Origin: Ostreococcus lucimarinus
Lineage: Eukaryota
Assembly: GCA_000092065.1 (NCBI GenBank)
Contig: CP000582.1
Length of the DNA stretch: 64,000 bases
Strand: one strand, 5' to 3'
The notes under the pieces were generated by a model. That model had not been told where the DNA came from. It did not search any database and was given only the letters and a program-made list of their open reading frames with translations. Positions 7,033 to 26,168 of this stretch are shown here, piece by piece. Each line of letters opens with the position of its first letter. The stretch's first letter is position 1. Position numbers and translations under genes: made by a program.

Positions 7033-8756
7033 CTAGTTCAAGTCACTAGAATTTATAATCGATCCATCTGTGCCCATGACCAATGTTCTTGGCACCCAGC
7101 CACGACCGTAGTCATCGCAACCTAAATCGCGCAGTGCCGCACTTCCAACATCAATACATGACCTCGGATGCAAAGCCTTCAGGTCGTGGAGTTGAGCTGT
7201 CACATTATTGGCCACGAGATAATCCTAGTATATGCTACTTTTAAAAAATAAGAAGGTAAAACAATGATGTTCATACCCTGGTATCCTGATTTCTAACCGC
7301 AATATTCCTGATGAGAATACAGCATTGACGAAGAACTTTACCACAAGTTTCCTGTGGCATCAACTCTAACAGCTGATCGACCCCACCATTTGCTCTCAAT
7401 TCATTAGAAACTTCTACATTCCGAAGCGCCAAAGCCGCCAAAATACTGATCGAGTTCTCACGCACTGAACTTACTGGGGTAATTTACACTCAGATACAAT
7501 GCGATAGAGTAGTAAACCGCTCACCTTCGCACGTCATTAAGGAGACAAAAGTTTTGATAACGTCGAACTTTAGCAGGATTTCTTTGCGCGAGTCGGACAA
7601 TATAAGGCGCCGAACGCATCTGCAGCAATGGTTCAGTAATACTGCGTCCCTTCGACGAGATATTATTGCCTGTGTGGACATGACAAAATTTGACATCGAC
7701 ACAACATCAAATTCACATACCAGTAAACTACTTAAAACATCTTCTGGCACGCTCCTACATATCTTCTCGCTTGTCAACAGGTGAGAAAACTGCATATGCT
7801 GTGAAACAAGATTCTTGCATAGGGAAGCTTTACTTACTAGCTTGAATAAGACCACAGATGTCTCAAGCTGACTCGACTGTACTTGTTGGAGAATAGCTGC
7901 GGTTCCTCAGATTGCTGATTTCACAGGGACGGAAATTACTACATACCGTCATTAACTTTCGCCAACAATCCATGCTCGTGTAATATAAGCGCATGTCTAT
8001 ATTTATTGCTTGTTGAACTCTCTCTGTCATCGTCGATTAAAATCGCGGAGAAGAGTTCACAAATCGCCCGCATCAAGACTACATCAGAGGCACCAAATGC
8101 TTCAGTGAGGATGGTGAGCGTGCGCTCCTGGCATCTCTTGAGTCTTGTTCAATGAAGAGCGAAAAGTAACGTACGGTCTTCATCAAAATTATTTTCGCAT
8201 CACCGTGCTCCTTCGTGACACTTGCTAAGAAAGAGCACAAGGAAGTCGACAACGTTCGGCATTCCAGTAAAGTGAGGAATGCGGCACTTTTCAAGACTAG
8301 ACGTCGGTTCTCGTGTATGATCATCATCGCTGTGTAGGTACGAATGAGACAAAAAATACGAAAAAAACTTTTACACGCACCTGTTAAACAATTTAGAGCG
8401 CGGTCGCGTAGTGTTTGAGCCAAAGTTGTTTTGCAGCAAAATTTTAGAAGAATTTCTATGATTTCTCTTTGACCAGCAGTGCAAGCGAAGTCGACGATGT
8501 TTGGACGGAAAACAGACTGATCTGACAAATATGATTCGAATGAGACGATCGCAGACGTGAGCTTGTCTTCTTCACTATTTCCCCAGGTTTCATCTTCTAT
8601 CTCAGCAAGAGGACAGATCGAAGTCAGAAAAGTTTGCACAACTGCTGTGAAAGTATTGCAGTTGACTTGTGATAAGCTTGTCGCAATGCTTGAAATATCG
8701 AAGCCCTGCAAGGCAAACTCCTCTCTAGCTTCAATCTGGGCTGTAGTCGCATCCAT
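7033..8756 (-). CDS. Armadillo-repeat protein (ARMC6-like), at least 4 exons
   Basis: Consecutive minus-strand ORFs 8079-8756, 7490-7855, 7271-7465 and 7033-7215 carry ARM-like repeats (...NGGVDQLLELM...LIRNIAVRNQDTRV...). The C-terminal ...GSAALRDLGC... resembles the ARMC6 C-terminus. Exon joins were not resolved. Confidence 0.45.
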
Positions 8757-12568: not shown

Positions 12569-13952
12569 AATGAGCCTTGTTATACGCGATGTCACAGGAT
12601 ATCGAGGCGTGCCGTACATGGCTAGAAAGCTGTTGAAATTTCCCGTACGCTGGCGCAAGTTCCCCTGTGTGAATGTGCGTAAAATCGCCGATGCATGATG
12701 ATTTCCATTTTGCTTCATTTACAAAATGATAGGAAAATGCGAAAAAAGTTGCAAAAGTTCGAGAGCGATTTAGCTAAATTTTCACCCCTCTTAGGGTTTT
12801 GTCCTTTTCTCTACGCATGTCCGCCCATCGACGAAGAAACTCTCTACGCGCGTGCTCCGCGCGTCAGCGCGCGCGCGGACGTCACTAATGGACCCGGGGT
12901 GCGACGGAGAGCTCGCACGCTAAGTTTCACATGATTTGGCCGCTTGGTGTGCTAAACCGAGGCACTGAGCGCCGAGGGAGCGACGAGGAGCGCACGCCAT
13001 CAAGTTCGAATCGCGCGCGTCGACGGACGAAGTTGGAGGTTCACGGCGACGCGCGTACGCGACCGAAGAGCGCGAGGCTGCGGAAGCGTAAGGAAACACC
13101 CTCGCGCATAGTTCCCGGCCCTCTGTTGAGTCCGTTCAAGGCTCCAAGCGGCGTGCGCGCGCGCGATGGACGGGAACTGAGCGACACGGAGAGAGCCGCT
13201 TTCGCGAAGTGCATGCACTTTGCGACGCGTTGCGGACAAGCCTCGGTAGCAGACGTATGCAAGGAATGGGGAATAAGCAAGTCTCATGGATACAAGATCT
13301 TAAATCGGTGGCGAACGGAGGAGAGCGTCCAGTCTCGACCCAGAAGTGGGCGCCCACGCGCATTGACGGAGGAGGACATGCACACGCTCGAGTGCCTGTC
13401 GGAAGAGCTCAAAGGTTACTTCACGTGGGAATCGCTGGCGAAGCGGTTCACGGAAAAAACAGGTAAGCGCGTGTCGTGTACAGCTGTGTATAGTTCTTGT
13501 AAATCAGCCGGCTGGCGCCAAGTGTGCGAGCGTTATGTACCTTGCCTCAGCGCAACAGACGTGGCGAGAAGATTGGAGCAATACCATGAATACCATGACC
13601 GCGAGAGACTTGAGAGGTGCTGGGATGTCAAAACCGCAGTCACTAAATGCATCCTCGACGCCAACGGAACGAACGATTACAAGCTACCGCACGGTATCAA
13701 GCACGAGGAACCCATTTTTGTCGATATTTTCTTAGATTCGGACGATACAGACGATCCGGTGGCGCGCACTTTGGACTACGAAGGTCTGCATGCCTCACTC
13801 CCTTCTTCTCTCCCACGATAAATTTATGTTGCAAAAGTTGCGACCCCCTCGATTTTCCTCGAGTTGTAACTCAAGAAAAAAAACGCGGAAAAAAGACCCC
13901 CTCACGATTTCACGAATCACGAACCGTCTCATTACTTTCCGAATGGAGGTAG
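12544..13952. mobile_element. Tc1/mariner/IS630-like DNA transposon remnant, about 1.41 kb, flanked by TA
   Basis: A perfect 30/30 inverted repeat: TGATACTACCTCCATTCGGAAAGTAATGAG at 12539-12568 and its exact reverse complement at 13928-13957. TA dinucleotides lie immediately outside positions 12544 and 13952. The internal ORF has a paired-like HTH transposase N-terminus (...ESVQSRPRSGRPRALTEEDMHTLECL...). No DDE domain is recognisable. Confidence 0.6.
12931..13821 (+). pseudogene. Truncated Tc1/mariner-type transposase ORF (HTH DNA-binding part only)
   Basis: WGISKSHGYKILNRWRTEESVQSRPRSGRPRALTEEDMHTLECLSEELKGYFTWESLAKRFTEKTGKRVSCTAVY matches the bipartite HTH of Tc1/IS630 transposases. The first ~90 codons are R/K-rich read-through of GC-rich sequence. 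No catalytic DD(E/D) motif was found in any frame. Confidence 0.45.
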
Positions 13953-14921: not shown

Positions 14922-16644
14922 CTACCAAGGCACCTTAGTATAGCTGTGCATGTCATGTATACCGCCCTCTCGCTGAGCTGCGCCAGTTCGCGCCTCCATC
15001 GTCATCGTTCCACTAGCTAAAATCTGATGCGCTTTTGTAAGTGAATCCGCTCCGAGATCTTGAAAACCTTGCTTGACACCGTGCACGAGATACGGAATCA
15101 TAGTTTTCACAGAGCCCTTGTCTCGAACCGTACCAGATACACCTTGAGCAATCTTCAGGTGCCCAGATTCGCTCAGATAGCGAGAATCGCTCCCCTTCTT
15201 CATAGCGTCAAGGCTACCCATTCCACGATACTTTTTTACGCGGACGCCGTCTTGATAGAAGTATTGTCCTGGTGCTTCTGTGGTACCCGAAAACATAGAA
15301 CCACACATGGCGACACTAGCCCCAAGCGCCAACGCTTTGACAATGTGGCCACTGTTTTGGATGCCTCCATCGGCGATGATAGGAACATTGAACTCTTTAG
15401 CTATTTGCCCCACCTTGTAAACGGCTGTCGCCTGTCCTCGACCAACGGCACATACTTCTTGTGTTGTACATATACTGCCGGAACCCATACCAACGCGAAG
15501 CCCGTCAGCGCCAACTTCGAGTAGACGTCGAGCCTGATTCTGTGTGACAACATTTCCAGCGATTACATCCACGTGCGGAAGCTCGTTTTTCAAGTACTTG
15601 ATCATTTCTAGCTGATAAATAGAATCGCCTTGAGATGAATCCAGAATGATGGCATCCACTCCAGCATCTGCGAGATATTTAGCGCGGACACGATCGGCGT
15701 CTCGCGTTCCGATGGCGGCCCCACACAGCAAACGACCATGTTTATCGATAGAAGGAACTCCACTTGGTGGTCTATTTAACCTATCTTTTATGGTCGCTCG
15801 CGTCAACAAGCCAATCAAATATCGCTTTGCATCTACGATGGGTAGCTTTCCCCTTTTACTCTCAAGAAGAATTTGCTCGTTCTCTTGTGCACTCTTCTCG
15901 GTAGAACCGAGCACCAGGTCGTCGACGGAAGTCATGACTTCAGAAAGTAAGGTGTTGCGATCGCGCACAAGTTCAGCGTCACGAGTAGTTACTAAACCGA
16001 GTAGAGCACTACCACAAGTTCCACTTTCACTGATGCAAACTGAGCTGAAACCTCGAGCTGCGCGCAACTCGTCCAAATCTCGAAGTGTTGCACTTGGGCG
16101 CAGAACTGCCGGATTTGCGACGTATCCGGGTCTATGCGACTTGACTATCTTCGCATGTTCAAGTTGAGATTCCATCTACGACGAATCATAAGTTAGAGAC
16201 GTAAAAAATGCGTTGGACTGTCGTACCGCCATGTTGTAGTGAAGGAAACCCATCCCTCCAGCCTCAGCCATTGCGATGGCCATATCAGACTCGGTGACTG
16301 TATAAATCCATTAAGCCTTGTAAATCGTAAAGATATAGTTGCGACCAACCTGTATCCATCGGAGAGCTCACCATTGGCGTTCGGATCGACACATTTCTAC
16401 TCACTCGTGTTGAGAGATCAACCTGTGGGTGTTTGAATCAAGTTGCTGTTAAGTGCGTGCCGAACGATCAAACGTACCTGGTCAGCCGCAAAATCGATGA
16501 AACCAGGATGGAAGATAACATCATCGTATGTGTAGCAAAATCCTAGTCATGAAATTGGTAAGCCGCGAAGAGTCGAAACACACTTCGGCTTCACTTACCC
16601 TGGTTGAAAAGAGCCTCGCCGGGGAAGCCATCGAGGGAAGCCAT
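14922..16644 (-). CDS. IMPDH: Inosine-5'-monophosphate dehydrogenase (IMPDH), at least 4 exons
   Basis: The last exon 14922-16175 gives ...GLLTRATIKDR...LLCGAAIGTRDADRVRAKYLADAGVDAIILDSSQGDSIYQLEMIKYLK...GMGSGSICTTQEVCAVGRGQATAVYKV...IADGGIQNSGHIVKALALGAS... Upstream exons: MASLDGFPGEALFNQG|...IRTPMVSSPMDT|VTESDMAIAMAEAGGMGFLHYNMA|. Introns are 51-57 bp GT..AG. Confidence 0.9.
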
Positions 16645-18206: not shown

Positions 18207-21002
18207 TTGAATCAGCGCTCAGCCTGCAAACTTGAACTCCAACCCGTCGCTCGCGCTCTGTTCGTCGCAACGTGGCGCGGGAGAAGACGCGTTTCCCCGT
18301 GTAGTTCCGGTCGAAGAGGCGGCAGATCCGCGACACTACCTCATCGTACAGTTCAAACAACACTGAAAGTAGCATCGCTCTCAGGGGAGAAATTAATGAC
18401 TTCTCCGATCGCAGATTTTAACAGGAAGAGAGATGAGGATTCAGTCGAAGAGCTTTCTCCATTTTGGGGAATAGAAAAAGGCATAGTACTGCAAGAAGCT
18501 CGTTGTTTCAACGATCCACAGTTGGATGCACGTAAATGCCAACAGGTGATCACAAAGCTTCTATACCTGCATGTTCAAGGGGAGTTTTTCACAAAAACAG
18601 AGATAACAGAGATCTTCTTTTCAGTAACAAAGTTGTTTCAGTCGAAAAATAACAATCTCAGAAGGATGCTCTATCTCATCATAAAGGAGATTTGTCCAAC
18701 CTCTGACGAAGTTATTATCGTTACTTCATCGTTGATGAAAGATATGAACAGTAAAGTTGATCTATACCGAGCCAACGCGATTCGTGTTCTTTGTTGCATA
18801 GCGGACTCAGCAATACTAGGCCAGATCGAGCGTTACCTGAAACAAGCGATAGTTGACCGGAGTGATGCCGTGTCTTCTGCTGCCTTGATATCAGCAACGC
18901 ATTTGTCACTTGCAGATGTTGATATCGTGCGCCGATGGAGCAGCGAAATCCAAGAGGCAGTCAATTCGTCTTCTCCTGAGGTACAGTTTCATGCCTTGGG
19001 GCTTCTGTACGAGATTCGTAAATTCGATAGACTCTCAATCAACAAGCTAGTCGCGCAATTGACCCGAACACAACTTAGATCCCCGTTAGCACAGTGTTTG
19101 CTTATCAGGTATGTTTCAGAAGTGATTAAAGACAGTGCGGAAGATACTGTGGCTCCACTGCACACGTTTCTACAGAGCTGCATGAGGCATAAATCAGAAA
19201 TTGTCGTCTTTGAAAGCATACGTGCAATCACGTCTCAACATGACTTGGAAGCGCACCAATTGGTGTCGGTTGTGAACGTTCTCCAGCTCCTGCTATCGTC
19301 ACCGAAACCAAGTTCACGCTTTGCCGCGATGAGAGTTATCAATAAATTGGCTTTTCTATTCCCAGATCTGATATCAAACTGCAACGCTGATATCGAAAAT
19401 CTCATATCTGACGAGAACAAGTCAATAGCTACTCTGGCCATAACCACATTGTTGAAGACAGGCGGCGATGCTGCGGTTGAACGTCTGTTAGCTCGCATTC
19501 ATTCGTTTATGTCAGAGATTCAAGACGAGTTCAAGATAATGATAATAGAGGCAGTGCGAATAACGTGTATACGATGTGCCCATAAGTATCGCATTTTGCT
19601 ATCATTCTTGTCCACGTATTTGCGCGAAGAAGGAGGGTTCGAGTACAAACAATCAATCGTGCGATCTATTGTGCAACTATTTAACGCAATACCAGAGGCA
19701 AAGGAACTTTCACTTTCTTATCTATCAGAGTTCATTGAAGACTGTGAATACACGCAGCTTTCATGCGAAGTGCTGTATTTACTCGGAAAAGAGACACCAT
19801 ACACGACTGATCCTGGAAAGTATCTGAGATACATCTACAATAGGGTGATTCTTGAGAATCCTTCCATTCGAGCGGCCTCTATTTCGGCAATGGCGAGCAT
19901 CGCTGTGCATTGCGAGATGTTAAAGGGACGTGTCTTAGTACTTTTGCGCCGCTGTCTTTTCGATAGTGATGATGAAGTTCGAGATCGAGCGTGCGCATCA
20001 ATTGCACTCCTTGAGAAGGCATCTGCTCAGAAAGCTGGATCCCTTACAACACACACAACTGAAGCTTTCGAAAATGTGTTACTCAAATACTGCCAGTCAA
20101 ACTCAGATGAACCTATTGATCTGCAGACTATCGTCACTTCAAGTTCGGCAAACAGTGAGTCTACTAATAGCGCTTCGGTTCTCGAACAAGAACACGTGAT
20201 TTCTGACATCTCATACTCAAATATAGCTTCAGTGCCATATTTTGCAACGTGTGGCGACGTTTTCAAGAGCTCTATGAAAATTGATCTGACAGAAGACGAA
20301 ACTGAATACAAAATATCGTGTGTCAAGCACATCTTTGATAGTCATATCGTCTTCGAATTCATTTGCAGCAACACTATCAAAGAGCAAGCATTGACAAATG
20401 TGACTGTCGCTATGGAGGCGTTGGGTACAAGTGGGCTCTTAGAGCCGACTGTGCTGCCTCTTAATGTTATGCCACTTACGTCGTATGGGTCAACATTTGT
20501 TGTGTTCGATCATGAAGTCGGCACACAGGTAGAAGAAAGATTCGCTTGTACGTTGAAGTTTGTTTCGAAAGAGATTGACCCTATCACTGGGGCACTCGAA
20601 GATGATGGTTACGAAGATGAGTACTCAATAGAAGATGTTGAGCTTCTTGCTACTGACTTCATGCGTAGTGCTCGGGTTCAAGAATTCAGTCAAGTCTGGA
20701 GCGAAAGTGAATCTTACGTCGAGAACACTTTTTCAAATATCGTCCTGCCTCATGATACGGTTGAAAAATCTGTGAGTCATTTTTCTTCACTGCTTGGCTT
20801 CAGTCCGTGCATTGGGAAAACTGTCACGCGTAATGCAACTTTGCACACCGCGTGTTTTGCCGCAGAATTGTCAACTGGGGAGCATGTACTCATTAAAATT
20901 GCACTAAGTATGGAATCGCAGTCGAGCGTGACCGCAACCGTCACCTGCCGAGCTCCTCAAGCGCAGCTTTGTAACCAAGTACTTAGCGTAATCACTTGTT
21001 AG
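18207..21002 (+). CDS. COPG: Coatomer subunit gamma (COPG), intronless. The probable true start is the Met at 18396.
   Basis: ...FNRKRDEDSVEELSPFWGIEKGIVLQEARCFNDPQLDARKCQQVITKLLYLHVQGEFFTKTEITEIFFSVTKLFQSKNNNLRRMLYLIIKEI... is collinear with the COPG N-terminus. An appendage domain is at the C-terminus. Confidence 0.85.
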   Translation: MNQRSACKLELQPVARALFVATWRGRRRVSPCSSGRRGGRSATLPHRTVQTTLKVASLSGEKLMTSPIADFNRKRDEDSVEELSPFWGIEKGIVLQEARCFNDPQLDARKCQQVITKLLYLHVQGEFFTKTEITEIFFSVTKLFQSKNNNLRRMLYLIIKEICPTSDEVIIVTSSLMKDMNSKVDLYRANAIRVLCCIADSAILGQIERYLKQAIVDRSDAVSSAALISATHLSLADVDIVRRWSSEIQEAVNSSSPEVQFHALGLLYEIRKFDRLSINKLVAQLTRTQLRSPLAQCLLIRYVSEVIKDSAEDTVAPLHTFLQSCMRHKSEIVVFESIRAITSQHDLEAHQLVSVVNVLQLLLSSPKPSSRFAAMRVINKLAFLFPDLISNCNADIENLISDENKSIATLAITTLLKTGGDAAVERLLARIHSFMSEIQDEFKIMIIEAVRITCIRCAHKYRILLSFLSTYLREEGGFEYKQSIVRSIVQLFNAIPEAKELSLSYLSEFIEDCEYTQLSCEVLYLLGKETPYTTDPGKYLRYIYNRVILENPSIRAASISAMASIAVHCEMLKGRVLVLLRRCLFDSDDEVRDRACASIALLEKASAQKAGSLTTHTTEAFENVLLKYCQSNSDEPIDLQTIVTSSSANSESTNSASVLEQEHVISDISYSNIASVPYFATCGDVFKSSMKIDLTEDETEYKISCVKHIFDSHIVFEFICSNTIKEQALTNVTVAMEALGTSGLLEPTVLPLNVMPLTSYGSTFVVFDHEVGTQVEERFACTLKFVSKEIDPITGALEDDGYEDEYSIEDVELLATDFMRSARVQEFSQVWSESESYVENTFSNIVLPHDTVEKSVSHFSSLLGFSPCIGKTVTRNATLHTACFAAELSTGEHVLIKIALSMESQSSVTATVTCRAPQAQLCNQVLSVITC

Positions 21003-21168
21003 GTGTCATCAGTTTGATGTTATGAATCAGCTACGAGTCTATGATCGCGCCTGGGAAAACGATGAAACGAGTTGGGAATGAGAAATATTTACCGTTACCT
21101 ATGGCACAGACGGTGGTATGGTATGCACGTGCGAATTGGTCTTCTACCCCCCATGCTCCCTATAGGAC

Positions 21169-23555
21169 TTACTCAGACGCTGAAAAACACGTTAAAGATC
21201 TTAAATCACGCACGCTTTCATGTCGGCATGATAATAGATACTCAATCGCTCGTTGAATAATGATTTCATTCTCTGAATGCCCAAGACATTTCAAAGTTTG
21301 AACAAACTCGCCAACAAGTTCAATATCTTGTGCTTCTTGTAAGTATGGTAAGTAATACATAAGAAACCTCCGCTCGATGTCATAGGACGTCAACTTTGGT
21401 TTTATGGTGCACCACGACGTGTTTGTGAATATTCTGTGTGTTACGAAATAGCACTTCTCTTGAAATGCTTTCAATGATGTAAGTTGTGACTGTCTCTATG
21501 TTATGCACAGAATTTTAGAGAAAGTAAAATCCCTACCTCACGTTCCAACGACTCAACTGATGTAGTGCACATGTTTTCAACGGCCTCTTCACATATGCCT
21601 TCAACCTTCATCTCTGTTCCGCGAAAGAAGAAAGACCAAATCATGACTGAATTGAGCAGATCATAGGACAATGGAGTCGTCTTACTAATGCCTATGTAGT
21701 CATATAAGTGCCATCGAGGTGCAGCAGATCTTATACAATTTTCAAGTCCCCCAATATCGAATGACATTCTTTTCAGAGCGTACAAAGCTTCGTTTGAGTA
21801 CAGAATATCTTCAGGTAACATTGAAGCATCGAATGTTTTGTGCATTTGTAACCAATGTGTAGCAACACGTTTAGTTGCCTGCAAACAATACTCTCTTGTT
21901 CTACCCTGTGCATTAATCGAAAAGAAATAAAAGGACACTAAAATGTCGCTCCCCCACTCGGAAAAAAACGTGTCGCATGCTAGCACCTCCCTTTCCAAAT
22001 ACTCAAGCGCGTCATGGATAATGGTGCTTCGTTCTGTTAGTTTCGGAGTCCTTGCTGGATCATAATACAGCTCTGCACAACAGAAATTTACGTATGTGGG
22101 TCCCCAATGACTCAGCAGATACGCTAATGTTCGAGTCAACACTTCTTCGTGAACTGTGCTGGTTTCAGTAATACGAAGAACGGGTACAAGTTCGAGAAGC
22201 TTCTCGCCCAAGAGGGTGAACATGCCAATTTTTGCTGGTTGAATATCAAATCTGGGCAAACTTTGCCATTCAATAGTCCGTATTACTTTGATCGCAAGAT
22301 GACAGAGCGAACGGGTATCATAGTTCCAGGGCATGGATGCACAACTATTCACACTCGGAAAGTTTGCATGCGACGCCTCCACCGTGTGGCTGAGAGCCAA
22401 GCAGAAATCCATGTGCGAACTACCAAAAACTCTTCGCATTGAAACGATCGTAGAGTAAATATCGTGTAGACTAGGCCTAACATTAAATGAAGTTGAGAGG
22501 TGGTCTTCCACCGAGCATTTGATAAACTCTAACTCAACCATCGAAAGGCTTGTGCAAATGTACGGTGCCTCACCCCTTGCCACACAAATACCAGAAATAG
22601 CCAAAAGTAACTCATTCAATAGCCGCTTATAAACAATCTCATTCAAACCTTGATACATAGAAAAATTCTTTCGGTTTTCAATCGCCTGGAGTGCCCACGT
22701 ACTCGACACGTAAAAATTTGGAAGAAAAATGGGTTTCCCAATTTCTCTCAGCGACAGTTTCTTTTTGAGCAAGTCTTGAAAATAATTGCAAAGCCGCTGT
22801 GCACCTGCCTTCAACTTACTGATACAATCTGCAACTCTTCTCGTAACTGCTTGAGCGGTAGCACGCTCAACCAATTCCATAAAATCAGCGTGAGTTGCAT
22901 CACCATCAAGTGCGTTCTGCTCTGGTATGCAGAGAACAAGCTGAAGCACCTCTCTGGAAATACTTCTCCTAGTTGAAAGAAGATCATGCAGTGTATCATC
23001 AAAGTATATGAATGAACGCAACAAAAGGAAGCAACTCGCTTGCAGGTCTACAGGCGGCATTTCGCAAAAAACACTTGCTGTGTGAAAATTTAGCCATAGT
23101 CGCTCAATAATGGATTTGATTCCGTATTCAGGACCAGTCATCGTAGACGTGCATGAAACTCCATCTACAAACTCTTTCAAATGGGCCCAAACAATTCTAT
23201 TTACTGATTGAACTTGCACGAAGTCAACGCTTTTGTTCAAGCTAATGTATTCTTCATGCTCTACGGTGCGTGCAGGAAGCCTGGTCAACCATGTATGGTC
23301 GCTGTTTTCCTGAGAAAGATAACGAACCACAGGATACCTTTCTTGTAGATGTGTGAAGAACTCGTCGAAATTCTTCGCCAAAGAGATGCTCATCCTCTCG
23401 AGTACTGCCACAAGATTTGAGGGTTTATCACGGATCGCCGTGTAAGAGGACGAAGCTTGAGATGCTGACCTTAAGTTCTTGATCGTACTTAGTAAGTAGC
23501 TAACGAATAGATATTTAAGTTCATCAAAATCTTTCTGAGTTGTATTCATCGTCAT
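21169..23555 (-). CDS. Large hypothetical protein, mostly alpha-helical by composition. Exons are about 21501-23555 plus 21169-21474.
   Basis: A 684-aa uninterrupted ORF plus a downstream 101-aa ORF on the same strand. Codon usage matches neighbouring genes. I could assign no family motif. Confidence 0.45.
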
Positions 23556-23803
23556 CCTTGATCTTCAAAATATGTCAACAGTAGCTCTGACAAGTGAGGT
23601 GCCAGACTTACCTGCCAAATTCAACATTACGACTGAGCGCGAAATTCATGCTTTCTTCAGCATCCATTGGCTCGCTAGAACCAATATGGATGACGCAGAA
23701 TCTACACTGACGGCGAACATATTCATCAACATCACAAAAAACGTTATTGTTGGATATTGAACGACTGAGATTGACGAACTCATTGACACGTGCCTAAAGT
23801 GGG

Positions 23804-25102
23804 TTAAGATATGTTGAAATCTAAGCCACGTGACTTTACCTTAAGTAAACTTTCGGTGGAAATATCGTCAGCAGCTTTCTGGTACCGTTTATTGCAAACA
23901 CTCACGAGTCGAAATTCATCTTCTTCTCGTATCATTCTATGAAGGAACTGTTCCGTAAAAAGTTTTGAGAAGTCACCGTCGAGTTTCCTTTCATCACACA
24001 CGTGAATCAAACGTGTCGTGCATCCGATGATTTTCTTAATATGACAGGAATCGTCAAATAGCTCCCCTTCAAAACCTGGCAAATCAACAATTTCGACACC
24101 TGATTTCAAGCGAGTGCTCGGGATCTCGAGTGATATAAAATTCAGAAGTCCCCAGCGCGAGTGGTTACCACATGTCACGCTATGCAGAACATTCTTGATG
24201 TATACGAGATCTTGAAATGATGTGCAATTTTTTAAACTACAGGTAAAAACGCGCCCCAGAGTTGCCATAACGTGTTCTGGCAATAGAACATCATCGTCCG
24301 TTAGCTCGGTGATATCAAAAGAGGAGGGAAATCCTAGCATGGAAAGTGCTCGCTGAAGACGTTCATCTTTGTTTGAAATCAAAGACGGACAGAAGTTACT
24401 TTTGGATCCTACTGTACCACTGATGACACCTTCAAGATACAAAAGCTCGTGCTGTCTCTGAGACCTCTGTAAATTACGAGCCGCTAATAACTTCTTGAGT
24501 TCATTGTCAACTTGGGCGGGCGAAGCGTAGGCAAAAGTTATTCTTGCATGGTTACCATAGAATACGTGAATAGGTACTTTTGTAGTGCAAAGCATGTCTC
24601 CCTCCGGCAATATACCGGCGCTGACATCTTGCTTGTCGAGTTGTGGATAGAACTGAGGTAATCTGTTGTCACTTGTACCTAGCGAAGACCCAAGATGAAA
24701 TAACTGCGGGGTCCAGTAAATACTTTCATCGAAAGAATCAAGCACAGTTACTGTCAAACTTTCTTTCATTTTTTGTTCCGTCAGGGCAGGCTCAACTTTA
24801 GAGTCAAAATCGTGCCGTAGTAGCCAATTCAGTAGATGCGTCTTCCCACTACCAGAGCGACCGATGAGACAGACGGTGGTGTAATCTTGTCCTCTCGCAC
24901 GAGACTGAACTTTTTGCAGTTGTGTTTTGAGAAGTTCCAGTCCAGCGCTAAATTTGCCTTGAGCTTTGGAGTCGTCCTTCAGCAAAGAACGTTTGAGCGT
25001 CGAAACGGTCGTGCATAAGGAATATGCTTCTCGAAGTAGTGTAGTGGCATTATCCTTTTTACCCTCTGAATTGGAGCAACCCACGTGCTGAAAGTCTCGC
25101 AT
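23804..25102 (-). CDS. Atypical P-loop NTPase or GTPase, 432 aa, intronless
   Basis: Walker A/G1 motif LIGRSGSGKTHLLNWLL near residue 85. A dynamin-type G3-like motif VEIVDLPGF lies near residue 345. The spacing between them is unusually long (~260 aa) for dynamin- or IRG-type GTPases. Confidence 0.5.
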   Translation of the reverse strand: MRDFQHVGCSNSEGKKDNATTLLREAYSLCTTVSTLKRSLLKDDSKAQGKFSAGLELLKTQLQKVQSRARGQDYTTVCLIGRSGSGKTHLLNWLLRHDFDSKVEPALTEQKMKESLTVTVLDSFDESIYWTPQLFHLGSSLGTSDNRLPQFYPQLDKQDVSAGILPEGDMLCTTKVPIHVFYGNHARITFAYASPAQVDNELKKLLAARNLQRSQRQHELLYLEGVISGTVGSKSNFCPSLISNKDERLQRALSMLGFPSSFDITELTDDDVLLPEHVMATLGRVFTCSLKNCTSFQDLVYIKNVLHSVTCGNHSRWGLLNFISLEIPSTRLKSGVEIVDLPGFEGELFDDSCHIKKIIGCTTRLIHVCDERKLDGDFSKLFTEQFLHRMIREEDEFRLVSVCNKRYQKAADDISTESLLKVKSRGLDFNIS

Positions 25103-25136
25103 GAGAGGAAGAGAGGAAGAGAGGAAGAGAGGAAGA
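25103..25136. repeat. (GAGAGGAA)4 purine microsatellite immediately 5' of the NTPase start codon
   Basis: gagaggaagagaggaagagaggaagagaggaaga, read directly from the sequence. Confidence 0.8.
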
Positions 25137-25550
25137 CCAACAACCGCCAGACGTTTTGTCGGGAACCGAGAACAACGCGTTAGTTAACACGAACCAAATC
25201 TTGAGTGAAAGAGTCGAACAATATTAAACGCATTAGCAACTTGCAATTCTAGTATACTCACGGCCGCCGTCAAGCGACGTCCTCCTATGAAGTATAACTG
25301 AATTTCTGAATCTCGGTGACAACAAGCTCAAGTCGGAAACGCCAGATTCAGAGACCGCCATTTCTGTACAGTGTTTTTACTTTTTCGAGTCACCCTGCAT
25401 GTAACACTTTGCGCTGCCAACTCTTGGGACTCTTGGAGTAGAAGGCGATCTGATACAATCTGTAGCGAGTATTGTACGCACCGCTTCACCTCTAACTCGA
25501 GAAGCGTAATTGTGCACGTTTGTGGGGGAAAGTGTTTTGGGAGCTAAGTT

Positions 25551-26168
25551 TTGCAAGTTGCGTGTAAGACTAGGAAGCGCAACATGCTGGGAACAAAAAA
25601 ACCGCTCTTACTCGCACCCGGTGATCACTTTGAGTCCGATTCAATTCTGAACACCGCTGATATACCACATGTAACAATTAGTAGAACGTCGAAGCTAGTC
25701 CTGGGCCAGCGGCAAAATTTCAAGGTCAGAACCAGCAGTAGTCCAACACCAGGAGCGAACGTCATTGGCATCGTCACTAAAGTCTCACAGCAAAGTATTC
25801 ACGCCATGATCAATTCTTCGCTCGATGCTGAGATTCCAATTACCTGTCTTACTCACAGTCAGCGAAACGTGCGGGTAGGGTCTGCTATCCAAGCTACTGT
25901 TCAGTCGGTGTCGTCAAAGAAAGTTCTTTTGACTTTTGATGTAAACGAAAAAGGAGTCGCAAACGGCGTGCTTCACAAAGGTCGTGTATTTAGCTTCAGG
26001 CAGCAAGTATCTATGGGCTGCCGTTGTAAACGCTGGAAGATGCAGGCGAGAATGAAGGCGACTTGTCCCACAGACATTGTACTAAGTCTGAACCAGCAAA
26101 TGTGGTTACGAACGACGCAGCGCCGAAAAACACGCGACGTTCACACTCTATTACTGGAATGCATGTGA
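25551..26168 (+). CDS. Possible exosome component CSL4-like protein (S1/OB fold plus a C-terminal Cys cluster), uncertain
   Basis: A 205-aa ORF in a 1.5 kb gap. LLLAPGDHF, PGANVIGIVTKV...VRVGSAIQATV...VLLTFDVNEKGVANGV and the C-terminal CRCKRWKMQARMKATCP show weak collinear resemblance to CSL4. There is no strong motif. Confidence 0.3.
   Translation: MQVACKTRKRNMLGTKKPLLLAPGDHFESDSILNTADIPHVTISRTSKLVLGQRQNFKVRTSSSPTPGANVIGIVTKVSQQSIHAMINSSLDAEIPITCLTHSQRNVRVGSAIQATVQSVSSKKVLLTFDVNEKGVANGVLHKGRVFSFRQQVSMGCRCKRWKMQARMKATCPTDIVLSLNQQMWLRTTQRRKTRDVHTLLLECM

Follow-up and report, generated by a model that had tools for sequence, protein, structure and literature searches.

A 432-residue open reading frame of Ostreococcus lucimarinus chromosome 2 is very probably the first exon of a six-exon gene for a divergent dynamin-superfamily GTPase

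An uninterrupted open reading frame (ORF) of 432 codons on the minus strand of Ostreococcus lucimarinus chromosome 2 (25102-23804) raises two questions: what kind of nucleotide-binding protein it encodes, and whether it is a complete gene. The ORF lies in a stretch of 64,000 nucleotides (assembly GCA_000092065.1, contig CP000582.1), which is referred to here as the window and whose positions are used throughout. An exact-sequence look-up of nine ORF products assigned the window to strain CCE9901 and identified the product of the 432-codon ORF as XP_001416411.1 (A4RSY7), publicly named "ATP/GTP-binding protein, putative". The initial annotation of the locus, made from the sequence alone, described a Walker A motif and a dynamin-like DLPG motif about 260 residues apart, and proposed an intronless gene for a novel dynamin-superfamily GTPase or, alternatively, for an immunity-associated GTPase or another P-loop ATPase in which DLPG is a coincidence. 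The distance was confirmed on the minus strand, measuring 259 residues from the Walker A motif (residues 81-88) to DLPG. The ORF itself is also present, but it represents a truncated gene model and not the full product. Our analysis indicates that it is very probably exon 1 of a six-exon minus-strand gene (25102-21031), which encodes a divergent dynamin-superfamily GTPase of approximately 1,277 residues.

The six-exon model joins three consecutive minus-strand ORFs, namely, the 432-residue ORF, a 684-residue ORF (23555-21501) and a 101-residue ORF (21474-21169). Removal of five GT..AG introns of 41-54 nt (46, 49, 41 or 47, 54 and 48 nt, in order of transcription; G–C content of 0.32-0.43) yields a coding sequence of 3,834 nt that specifies 1,277 residues and has no internal stop (Table 1). 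The last 11 residues of the 432-residue ORF (VKSRGLDFNIS) are read-through into intron 1, and about 850 residues follow in the spliced model; the intronless gene of the initial annotation thus gives way to one with five short introns and a much longer product. In the case of intron 3, the acceptors that give introns of 41 and 47 nt cannot be told apart, and a third candidate acceptor (68-nt intron) was rejected for being out of frame. A gap of 28 nt separates the end of the gene from the convergent ORF for coatomer gamma (18207-21002, plus strand), which has its stop at 21002.

The gene structure is supported by intron positions shared with related loci and by the existence of a single, unbroken ORF in Bathycoccus. 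A scan of metagenomes revealed two syntenic loci, L003 and L004, and in both of them coatomer gamma is convergent downstream, as in the window. GT..AG introns of 42-53 nt occupy the positions of introns 1-4 in both loci, with the same phase for introns 1 and 2, and the counterparts of introns 3 and 4 measure 46-51 nt. As for intron 5, L004 has the full intron, and L003 has a GTAAGA donor at the same place. The peptide at the intron 1 junction reads K/ARVNEF in O. lucimarinus, E/ARIEEL in L003 and Q/ARLEEF in L004 (the slash marks the junction), and its Bathycoccus equivalent, LLRLREL, has no break.

The Bathycoccus protein (P0133; 1,219 residues) is one of the 24 relatives recovered by an exhaustive HMMER search, in which it proved collinear with all three window ORFs. 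Its sequence is shared by two NCBI models of Bathycoccus, which identifies it as a Bathycoccus prasinos protein. When the spliced model was compared with P0133 by BLASTP, residues 23-470 aligned with 21-467 (E-value, 3e-27) and residues 968-1276 with 884-1205 (E-value, 1e-41), and these alignments span introns 1, 3, 4 and 5. Most of the listed members of the metagenomic cluster of P0133 (403 members) are the same uninterrupted 1,219-residue ORF. The two NCBI models (P0146/P0147; 448 and 471 residues) have the N-terminal part of the G domain fused directly to C-terminal pieces; they omit most of the 1,219-residue ORF, which recurs in hundreds of metagenomic contigs, and look mis-spliced.

Coatomer gamma of the window shows no more than 62-63% identity to that of L003 or L004, and because of this the two loci are taken to be either distant species or opposite-mating-type versions. 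The related-strain contigs L001 and L002, at 99.9% identity, were too close for comparative tests. Over window positions 20900-25600, L002 (JGI contig Ga0527078_1291) shows 99.87% identity, five single-base homopolymer insertions and one single-nucleotide polymorphism. Since these insertions are its only indels, the frameshifted 188-residue protein P0122 is an assembly artefact and not a variant allele. A further observation concerns protein clusters: the products of the 432- and 684-residue ORFs share no sequence, yet a single cluster of 33 members at 90% identity contains both. Among its 15 listed members there is no product that spans an exon junction; a member outside the list may cover both ORFs, which would be independent support for a single gene.

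The G–C content of the window is 0.42-0.53, as compared with a genome average of about 60%, and the window is therefore a low-GC part of chromosome 2. This part of the chromosome is known as the big outlier chromosome region, and its introns are supported by expressed sequence tags (PMC3491373). It is also a candidate mating-type (MT-) locus in the O. lucimarinus CCE9901 strain (PMC8557840). Genes of chromosome 2 have a higher proportion of introns of 40-65 bp (PMC2367439), a range into which all five of the introns proposed here fall. According to the same source, the short introns lack canonical splice signals, whereas those described here do have GT..AG.

Profile searches and structure prediction, two of the checks suggested in the initial annotation, both favour the reading that the annotation had preferred, namely, a novel GTPase of the dynamin superfamily with DLPG as a genuine G3. 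Dynamin_N is the best Pfam family match of the O. lucimarinus protein (24.0 bits; E-value, 4.6e-5) and aligns residues 164-400 to profile positions 23-162, and the remaining Pfam matches are limited to the P-loop region. The gathering cut-off of Dynamin_N is 27 bits, and two distant relatives, P0137 and P0139, score above it (29.7 and 29.2 bits, respectively). A sequence-profile search of the PDB matched the G3 region to those of BDLP, IniA and a Campylobacter dynamin-like protein (DLP). Single-sequence AlphaFold2 prediction was unusable, with a predicted local distance difference test score (pLDDT) of 38, and prediction from a 21-sequence alignment reached a pLDDT of 82.7 and a predicted template modelling score of 0.84. 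In a Foldseek search with the latter model, all of the top 30 matches belonged to the bacterial-DLP / SynDLP / mitofusin group (probability, 0.82-1.00; E-value up to 0.045), and the predicted extended G-domain fold is closest to solved dynamin-family structures. The model also places helices at residues 13-41 and 48-73, a putative N-terminal helical hairpin of about residues 13-73, and further helices after the G domain. Overall, G1, G2 and G3 are predicted to be intact in a dynamin-superfamily G domain that is closest to the bacterial-DLP / SynDLP / mitofusin fold.

The G1-G3 spacing, which the initial annotation had singled out as unusual, is real and, judging from the predicted structure, is due to two family-specific inserts of approximately 67 and 100 residues. 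Insert A is present in all of the Mamiellales homologs. Insert B is predicted to consist of a helix of 34 residues and a small subdomain, in which the family alignment shows the conserved motifs RALSxLG ... P......LG. The pLDDT of this insert is mostly 88-96, with values of 61-72 over residues 231-250. No intron removes the spacing. The sole in-frame GT..AG candidate in exon 1 (24464-24420; 45 nt), located near an intron of L003 and L004, was rejected, because the encoded 15-residue peptide (RSQRQHELLYLEGVI) can be aligned to an exonic part of L004 (RVEKLNYLDIAR); its weak donor, GTCTCA, also speaks against it. The intron of the two related loci is an extra GT..AG intron inside the G domain, after the LKKLL helix (L003, 6460-6508, 49 nt; L004, 6472-6522, 51 nt). 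It has no counterpart in O. lucimarinus and is a case of intron gain or loss within a genus-level group.

Four blocks are conserved in the family alignment: GxSGxGK..LN, LPEGD....T.VP, WGLL....E.P......G.E..D.PG and D.R.LDGD. The second block, LPEGDMLCTTKVP in O. lucimarinus, is the most conserved motif of the family, with L165, P166, E167, G168, D169, M170, T174, V176 and P177 invariant in seven Mamiellales sequences. Dynamins have their switch I Thr in a T-x-x-P context, and LPEGDMLCTTKVP resembles the dynamin switch I, LPRGSGIVTRRP; the earlier statement that the region contains no recognisable G2 or switch is thus wrong. The conserved-looking Cys/His-rich tail described in the same annotation did not hold up either. 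Positions of Cys and His vary across the family, for which reason a Cys/His metal site was rejected, and the conserved elements are instead G..SxWGLL before G3 and D.R.LDGD after it. The G4 position is variable (NKRN, TMTR, NNLR, CDR, CDK, IDK and GDR in other members), and no [NT]K.D motif was found anywhere in the 1,277-residue protein. Guanine specificity is uncertain, since the Asp of NKxD is missing at G4. The family consensus at G3 is D.PG, with D.PS in its place in Bathycoccus, L003 (around 7063-7109 and upstream) and P0124.

The spliced model adds two further regions to the G domain. The first 640 residues show 20-31% identity between the loci, and residues 422-988 form a poorly conserved middle region of about 500 residues. 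The last 290 residues or so are much better preserved: they are 54-55% identical to L003/L004, 33% identical to Bathycoccus and 22-27% identical to the distant homologs P0142 and P0143, which likewise have a G domain together with this C-terminal domain. Pfam DUF6895 matches it above the cut-off of 23.8 bits, both with the 856-residue tail (26.6 bits) and with the 289-residue domain (29.8 bits) as the query. This match was obtained for five of the six family members (best E-value, 5.4e-10), and the alignment is restricted to profile positions 166-286 of 289. The PDB profile search matched the domain to squalene-hopene cyclase repeats, and its final unit, DxELVGE..Q.LK.LG......A..(Y/W)L.....GxW, resembles a squalene-hopene cyclase QW repeat; the scores of the squalene cyclase models proper fall far short of the respective cut-offs. 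Judging from these sequence profiles, the C-terminal region can be described as resembling terpenoid cyclases. A reference title in one paper (PMC13352647) describes a member of DUF6895 as a lasso-peptide epimerase, and nothing in this analysis points to a shared activity.

Table 1. Window coordinates of the proposed gene, its exons and introns, and features of the predicted protein (H, helix; E, strand; AF2, AlphaFold2; TRF, Tandem Repeats Finder).
Feature	Position	Strand	Description	Comparison or supporting observation
Microsatellite	25103..25136	minus	Perfect 8-bp repeat (TTCCTCTC), ~4.2 (4.25) copies, directly 5' of the start codon	TRF score 68, 100% matches
Exon 1	23840..25102	minus	421 codons; predicted N-terminal helical hairpin and entire divergent dynamin-type G domain	
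G1 / P-loop	24839..24862	minus	GRSGSGKT, residues 81-88	GxSGxGK is the consensus across the family
Insert A	24614..24814	minus	Residues 97-163, between helix alpha1 and switch I; predicted extra strand and helices	AF2 H109-115, E116-121, H132-137, E139-141
G2 / switch I	24572..24610	minus	LPEGDMLCTTKVP, residues 165-177; T174, candidate catalytic Thr	Dynamin_N alignment from residue 164; LPEGD....T.VP family consensus
Insert B	24221..24520	minus	Residues 195-294, between beta3 and the helix preceding G3	AF2 H195-228, H247-255, E285-290
G3	24074..24085	minus	DLPG, residues 340-343	Preceded by conserved WGLL....E.P......G.E..D; matched to the G3 of BDLP, IniA and Campylobacter DLP by profile search
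G4 position	23882..23893	minus	NKRY, residues 404-407, directly after strand 398-403; specificity Asp missing	
Intron 1	23794..23839	minus	46 nt, GTAAAG..TTTAG, phase 0; holds the stop of the 432-residue ORF	L003 47 nt and L004 53 nt, same position and phase; Bathycoccus uninterrupted
Exon 2	23612..23793	minus	182 nt, ARVNEFVNLSRSIS...NVEFG	Open frame; homologous peptide in L003, L004 and Bathycoccus
Intron 2	23563..23611	minus	49 nt, GTAAGT..TGAAG, phase 2	Phase-2 counterparts in L003 (51 nt) and L004 (42 nt)
Exon 3	21537..23562	minus	2,026 nt, the 684-residue ORF; poorly conserved middle and start of the C-terminal domain	Aligned with L003 and L004 by tblastn
C-terminal conserved domain	21034..22043	minus	Residues 989-1277, spanning introns 3-5; Pfam DUF6895 and squalene-cyclase-type QW-like repeat	
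Intron 3	21496..21536	minus	41 nt, GTAGGG..CATAG, phase 0; alternative acceptor 6 nt downstream gives 47 nt	Counterparts in L003 (46 nt) and L004 (49 nt)
Exon 4	21214..21495	minus	282 nt, comprising the bulk of the 101-residue ORF; core sequence of the C-terminal domain, YFVTHRIFT...ELVGEFVQTLKCLG	
Intron 4	21160..21213	minus	54 nt, GTGCGT..CTATAG, phase 0, in-frame TAA	L003 and L004 counterparts directly before the G-x-W motif
Exon 5	21099..21159	minus	61 nt, GAWGVEDQFARAYHTTVCAI(G)	Aligns to Bathycoccus DGSWLQSEISDRKYHATVCAVG
Intron 5	21051..21098	minus	48 nt, GTAACG..CCCAG, phase 1	L003 and L004 both have a GTAAGA donor here; acceptor traced in L004 only
Exon 6 and stop	21031..21050	minus	Ends with the TAG stop (21033-21031)	

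Several observations weigh against a six-exon gene for a dynamin-superfamily GTPase. Splicing was deduced solely from comparison with other loci, and an exact look-up found the spliced protein to be absent from a collection of 15 billion proteins. The Dynamin_N score of the O. lucimarinus protein itself (24.0 bits) is below the 27-bit cut-off, and the AlphaFold2 model is confined to the N-terminal/G-domain part. G4 is degenerate (NKRY), the Bathycoccus ortholog P0133 has Ala at the position equivalent to T174 of switch I, and G3 is DTPS in Bathycoccus and L003. These last three substitutions suggest that hydrolysis may be weak or lost in some lineages, and that some orthologs may be poor hydrolases or pseudo-GTPases. 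In addition, a crude hydropathy test of the 1,277-residue protein revealed no transmembrane-like segment, the highest 19-residue Kyte-Doolittle mean being 1.44 against a commonly used threshold of about 1.6, and membrane attachment of the mitofusin/BDLP kind is thus not evident.

Four other explanations of the locus were considered. That the 432-residue protein is a true stand-alone G-domain product, with the 684-residue ORF as a separate gene, agrees with the public annotation (XP_001416411.1), with the stop codon the ORF has of its own and with an ATG that opens the 684-residue ORF just 7 nt past the proposed intron 2 acceptor. This is nonetheless quite unlikely: the stop falls within a GT..AG interval of 46 nt that two diverged orthologs share in position and phase, the 182-nt stretch between the ORFs is open and its peptide has homologs in L003, L004 and Bathycoccus, and the two domains occur in one protein both in Bathycoccus, where the entire protein is a single ORF, and in the distant homologs P0142 and P0143. 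Decay of the gene into a pseudogene, as might be expected in a non-recombining, mating-type-like region, would fit its location in the low-GC candidate mating-type locus (PMC8557840), the degenerate G4, the altered G2 and G3 of some orthologs and the frameshifted copy P0122. The last of these loses its force once the homopolymer insertions behind the frameshift are recognised as an assembly artefact, and a spliced coding sequence of 3,834 nt without a stop, with both terminal domains kept from Ostreococcus to Bathycoccus and more distant marine relatives, makes decay very unlikely.

The class of the NTPase is open to two further explanations. A non-dynamin P-loop NTPase (STAND, AAA, ABC, KAP or septin-like) with a coincidental DLPG can draw on many weak matches confined to the P-loop (MMR_HSR1, ABC_tran, NACHT, AAA_16 and Septin), on Septin and EngA, which the PDB profile search matched to the P-loop region, and on a PADLOC match to PtuA (E-value, 4e-5) that covers residues 67-113 only. 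The NACHT, AAA_16, nSTAND and NB-ARC matches, however, extend over only about 20-65 residues centred on Walker A and are all below their cut-offs, and neither IIGP nor KAP_NTPase is among the Pfam matches of the O. lucimarinus protein. The whole-domain fold matches contradict such an assignment and with it the P-loop ATPase alternative of the initial annotation, which is left with hardly any probability. The remaining explanation, an immunity- or conflict-type large GTPase comparable to Mx, GBP, IRG or the bacterial Leo dynamins as opposed to a housekeeping membrane remodeller, is unlikely. No IRG or GBP structure was a significant match in the fold search, the absence of IIGP from the Pfam matches bears on it as well, the AIG1 match is at the level of the P-loop (E-value, 0.11), and the LeoA and LeoBC matches are weak and lend no specific support; the immunity-associated alternative first suggested (IRG/GBP/AIG1) therefore finds little to stand on. 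Furthermore, the gene belongs to the big outlier chromosome region; it is the small outlier chromosome that, in O. tauri, is called a 'viral immunity chromosome' in the title of one paper (PMC5082852).

If the protein works as other members of the dynamin superfamily do, nucleotide would be bound through K87 and T88 of the P-loop, T174 of switch I and D340 of DLPG, and binding would drive dimerisation of the G domains and movement of the flanking helical regions. By the same analogy, the C-terminal domain might supply a module for binding a partner or ligand, or an enzymatic one. What is said of GTPase activity, dimerisation, any membrane association and the role in the cell is thus by analogy, whereas the exons and introns were derived by comparison with related loci, the motifs are present in the sequence and the fold was predicted. 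Because the closest structural relatives tether or fuse membranes, one may speculate that the protein is the first representative of a eukaryotic branch of the superfamily that has not been described before, and that it acts as a sex-linked or organelle-specific fusion or tethering machine, with a C-terminal domain that recognises a lipid or peptide ligand; this proposal is tentative and rather improbable. The branch was found in Ostreococcus, Bathycoccus and metagenomic relatives, most of them marine.

In comparison with known systems, the O. lucimarinus protein differs from each of its presumed relatives in several respects. Identity to bacterial and cyanobacterial DLPs (SynDLP, Nostoc BDLP, Campylobacter DLP1/2 and Mycobacterium IniA) is only 12-21%. 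G1 and G3 of bacterial DLPs are roughly 90-100 residues apart, as against 259 here. Unlike the bacterial proteins, this one is eukaryotic and nuclear-encoded, has two inserts, and lacks an NKxD G4 and a detected hydrophobic paddle or transmembrane segment. With respect to mitofusin/Fzo1, alongside which the plant chloroplast protein FZL belongs for comparison, the protein has no identified transmembrane segments or heptad-repeat tail, carries extra G-domain inserts, lacks G4 and ends in a different C-terminal domain. The classical dynamins, Mx, OPA1 and Mgm1 differ in that the O. lucimarinus protein scores below the Dynamin_N cut-off, has no Pfam matches to the dynamin middle, GED or PH regions, and has a much longer spacing and a degenerate G4. 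With EHD ATPases, it shares no sequence match beyond the P-loop; an EH domain is lacking and the inserts are different. The DUF6895 domain was seen in none of the dynamin-family matches examined. As to DUF6895 and squalene-hopene cyclase themselves, the DUF6895 cut-off is exceeded by roughly the C-terminal 100 residues, and a single clear QW-like unit is seen.

The purine repeat that had been noted next to the ATG is a perfect repeat and does adjoin the start codon; on the gene strand it reads as the pyrimidine-rich TTCCTCTC, and it shows neither conservation nor variation in copy number in the sequences compared. It is unique in the window (three overlapping matches found versus 0.04 expected by chance). 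The copy number is unchanged in the 99.87%-identical L002, and the orthologs of L003 and L004 have no such repeat upstream. Nothing was found to suggest that it is anything beyond a species-specific CT-rich tract in the 5' untranslated region or promoter.

None of the relatives looked up carries a functional name: they are unnamed, or called "hypothetical protein" or "unnamed protein product", and are nearly all metagenomic. No paper describing the family was found in the literature. Of three word-indexed protein searches, one returned a self fragment only, another (full-length alignment) was swamped by low-complexity candidates, and the third added the Bathycoccus models only. Two distant relatives have additional features, namely, an N-terminal BAH domain in P0143 (2,246 residues; residues 50-148; Pfam E-value, 1.3e-14) and a C-terminal CxxC...CxxC zinc-finger-like motif in P0139 (1,140 residues), which point to a possible connection with chromatin or the nucleus in some parts of the family. 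Elsewhere in the window, the IMP dehydrogenase ORF (14922-16175, minus strand) has 417 residues versus 502 in NCBI and MMETSP proteins of the same cluster, and here, too, a multi-exon gene of the low-GC region seems to have been cut short by being read as a plain ORF. An ORF at 12931-13821 (plus strand) is annotated as 'transposase-like protein' (XP_001416162.1), which fits the transposable-element enrichment reported for chromosome 2.

The public model XP_001416411.1, at 432 residues, accounts for no more than a third of the gene, an example of how gene models are fragmented by the short introns of the outlier chromosome in Mamiellales. The same effect explains why the family appears only as fragments in metagenomic gene calls. 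The corrected protein defines an uncharacterised lineage of the dynamin superfamily, in which a predicted G domain is combined with DUF6895, a combination found in none of the matches here. To dynamin researchers, it offers a natural example of a G domain that, according to the predicted fold, accommodates insertions totalling about 165 residues as well as the loss of G4. The family occurs in abundant marine picoalgae, and in O. lucimarinus the gene is located in the low-GC region of chromosome 2, a candidate mating-type locus (PMC8557840), whose function, as a sex chromosome or as a species barrier, is a matter of debate.

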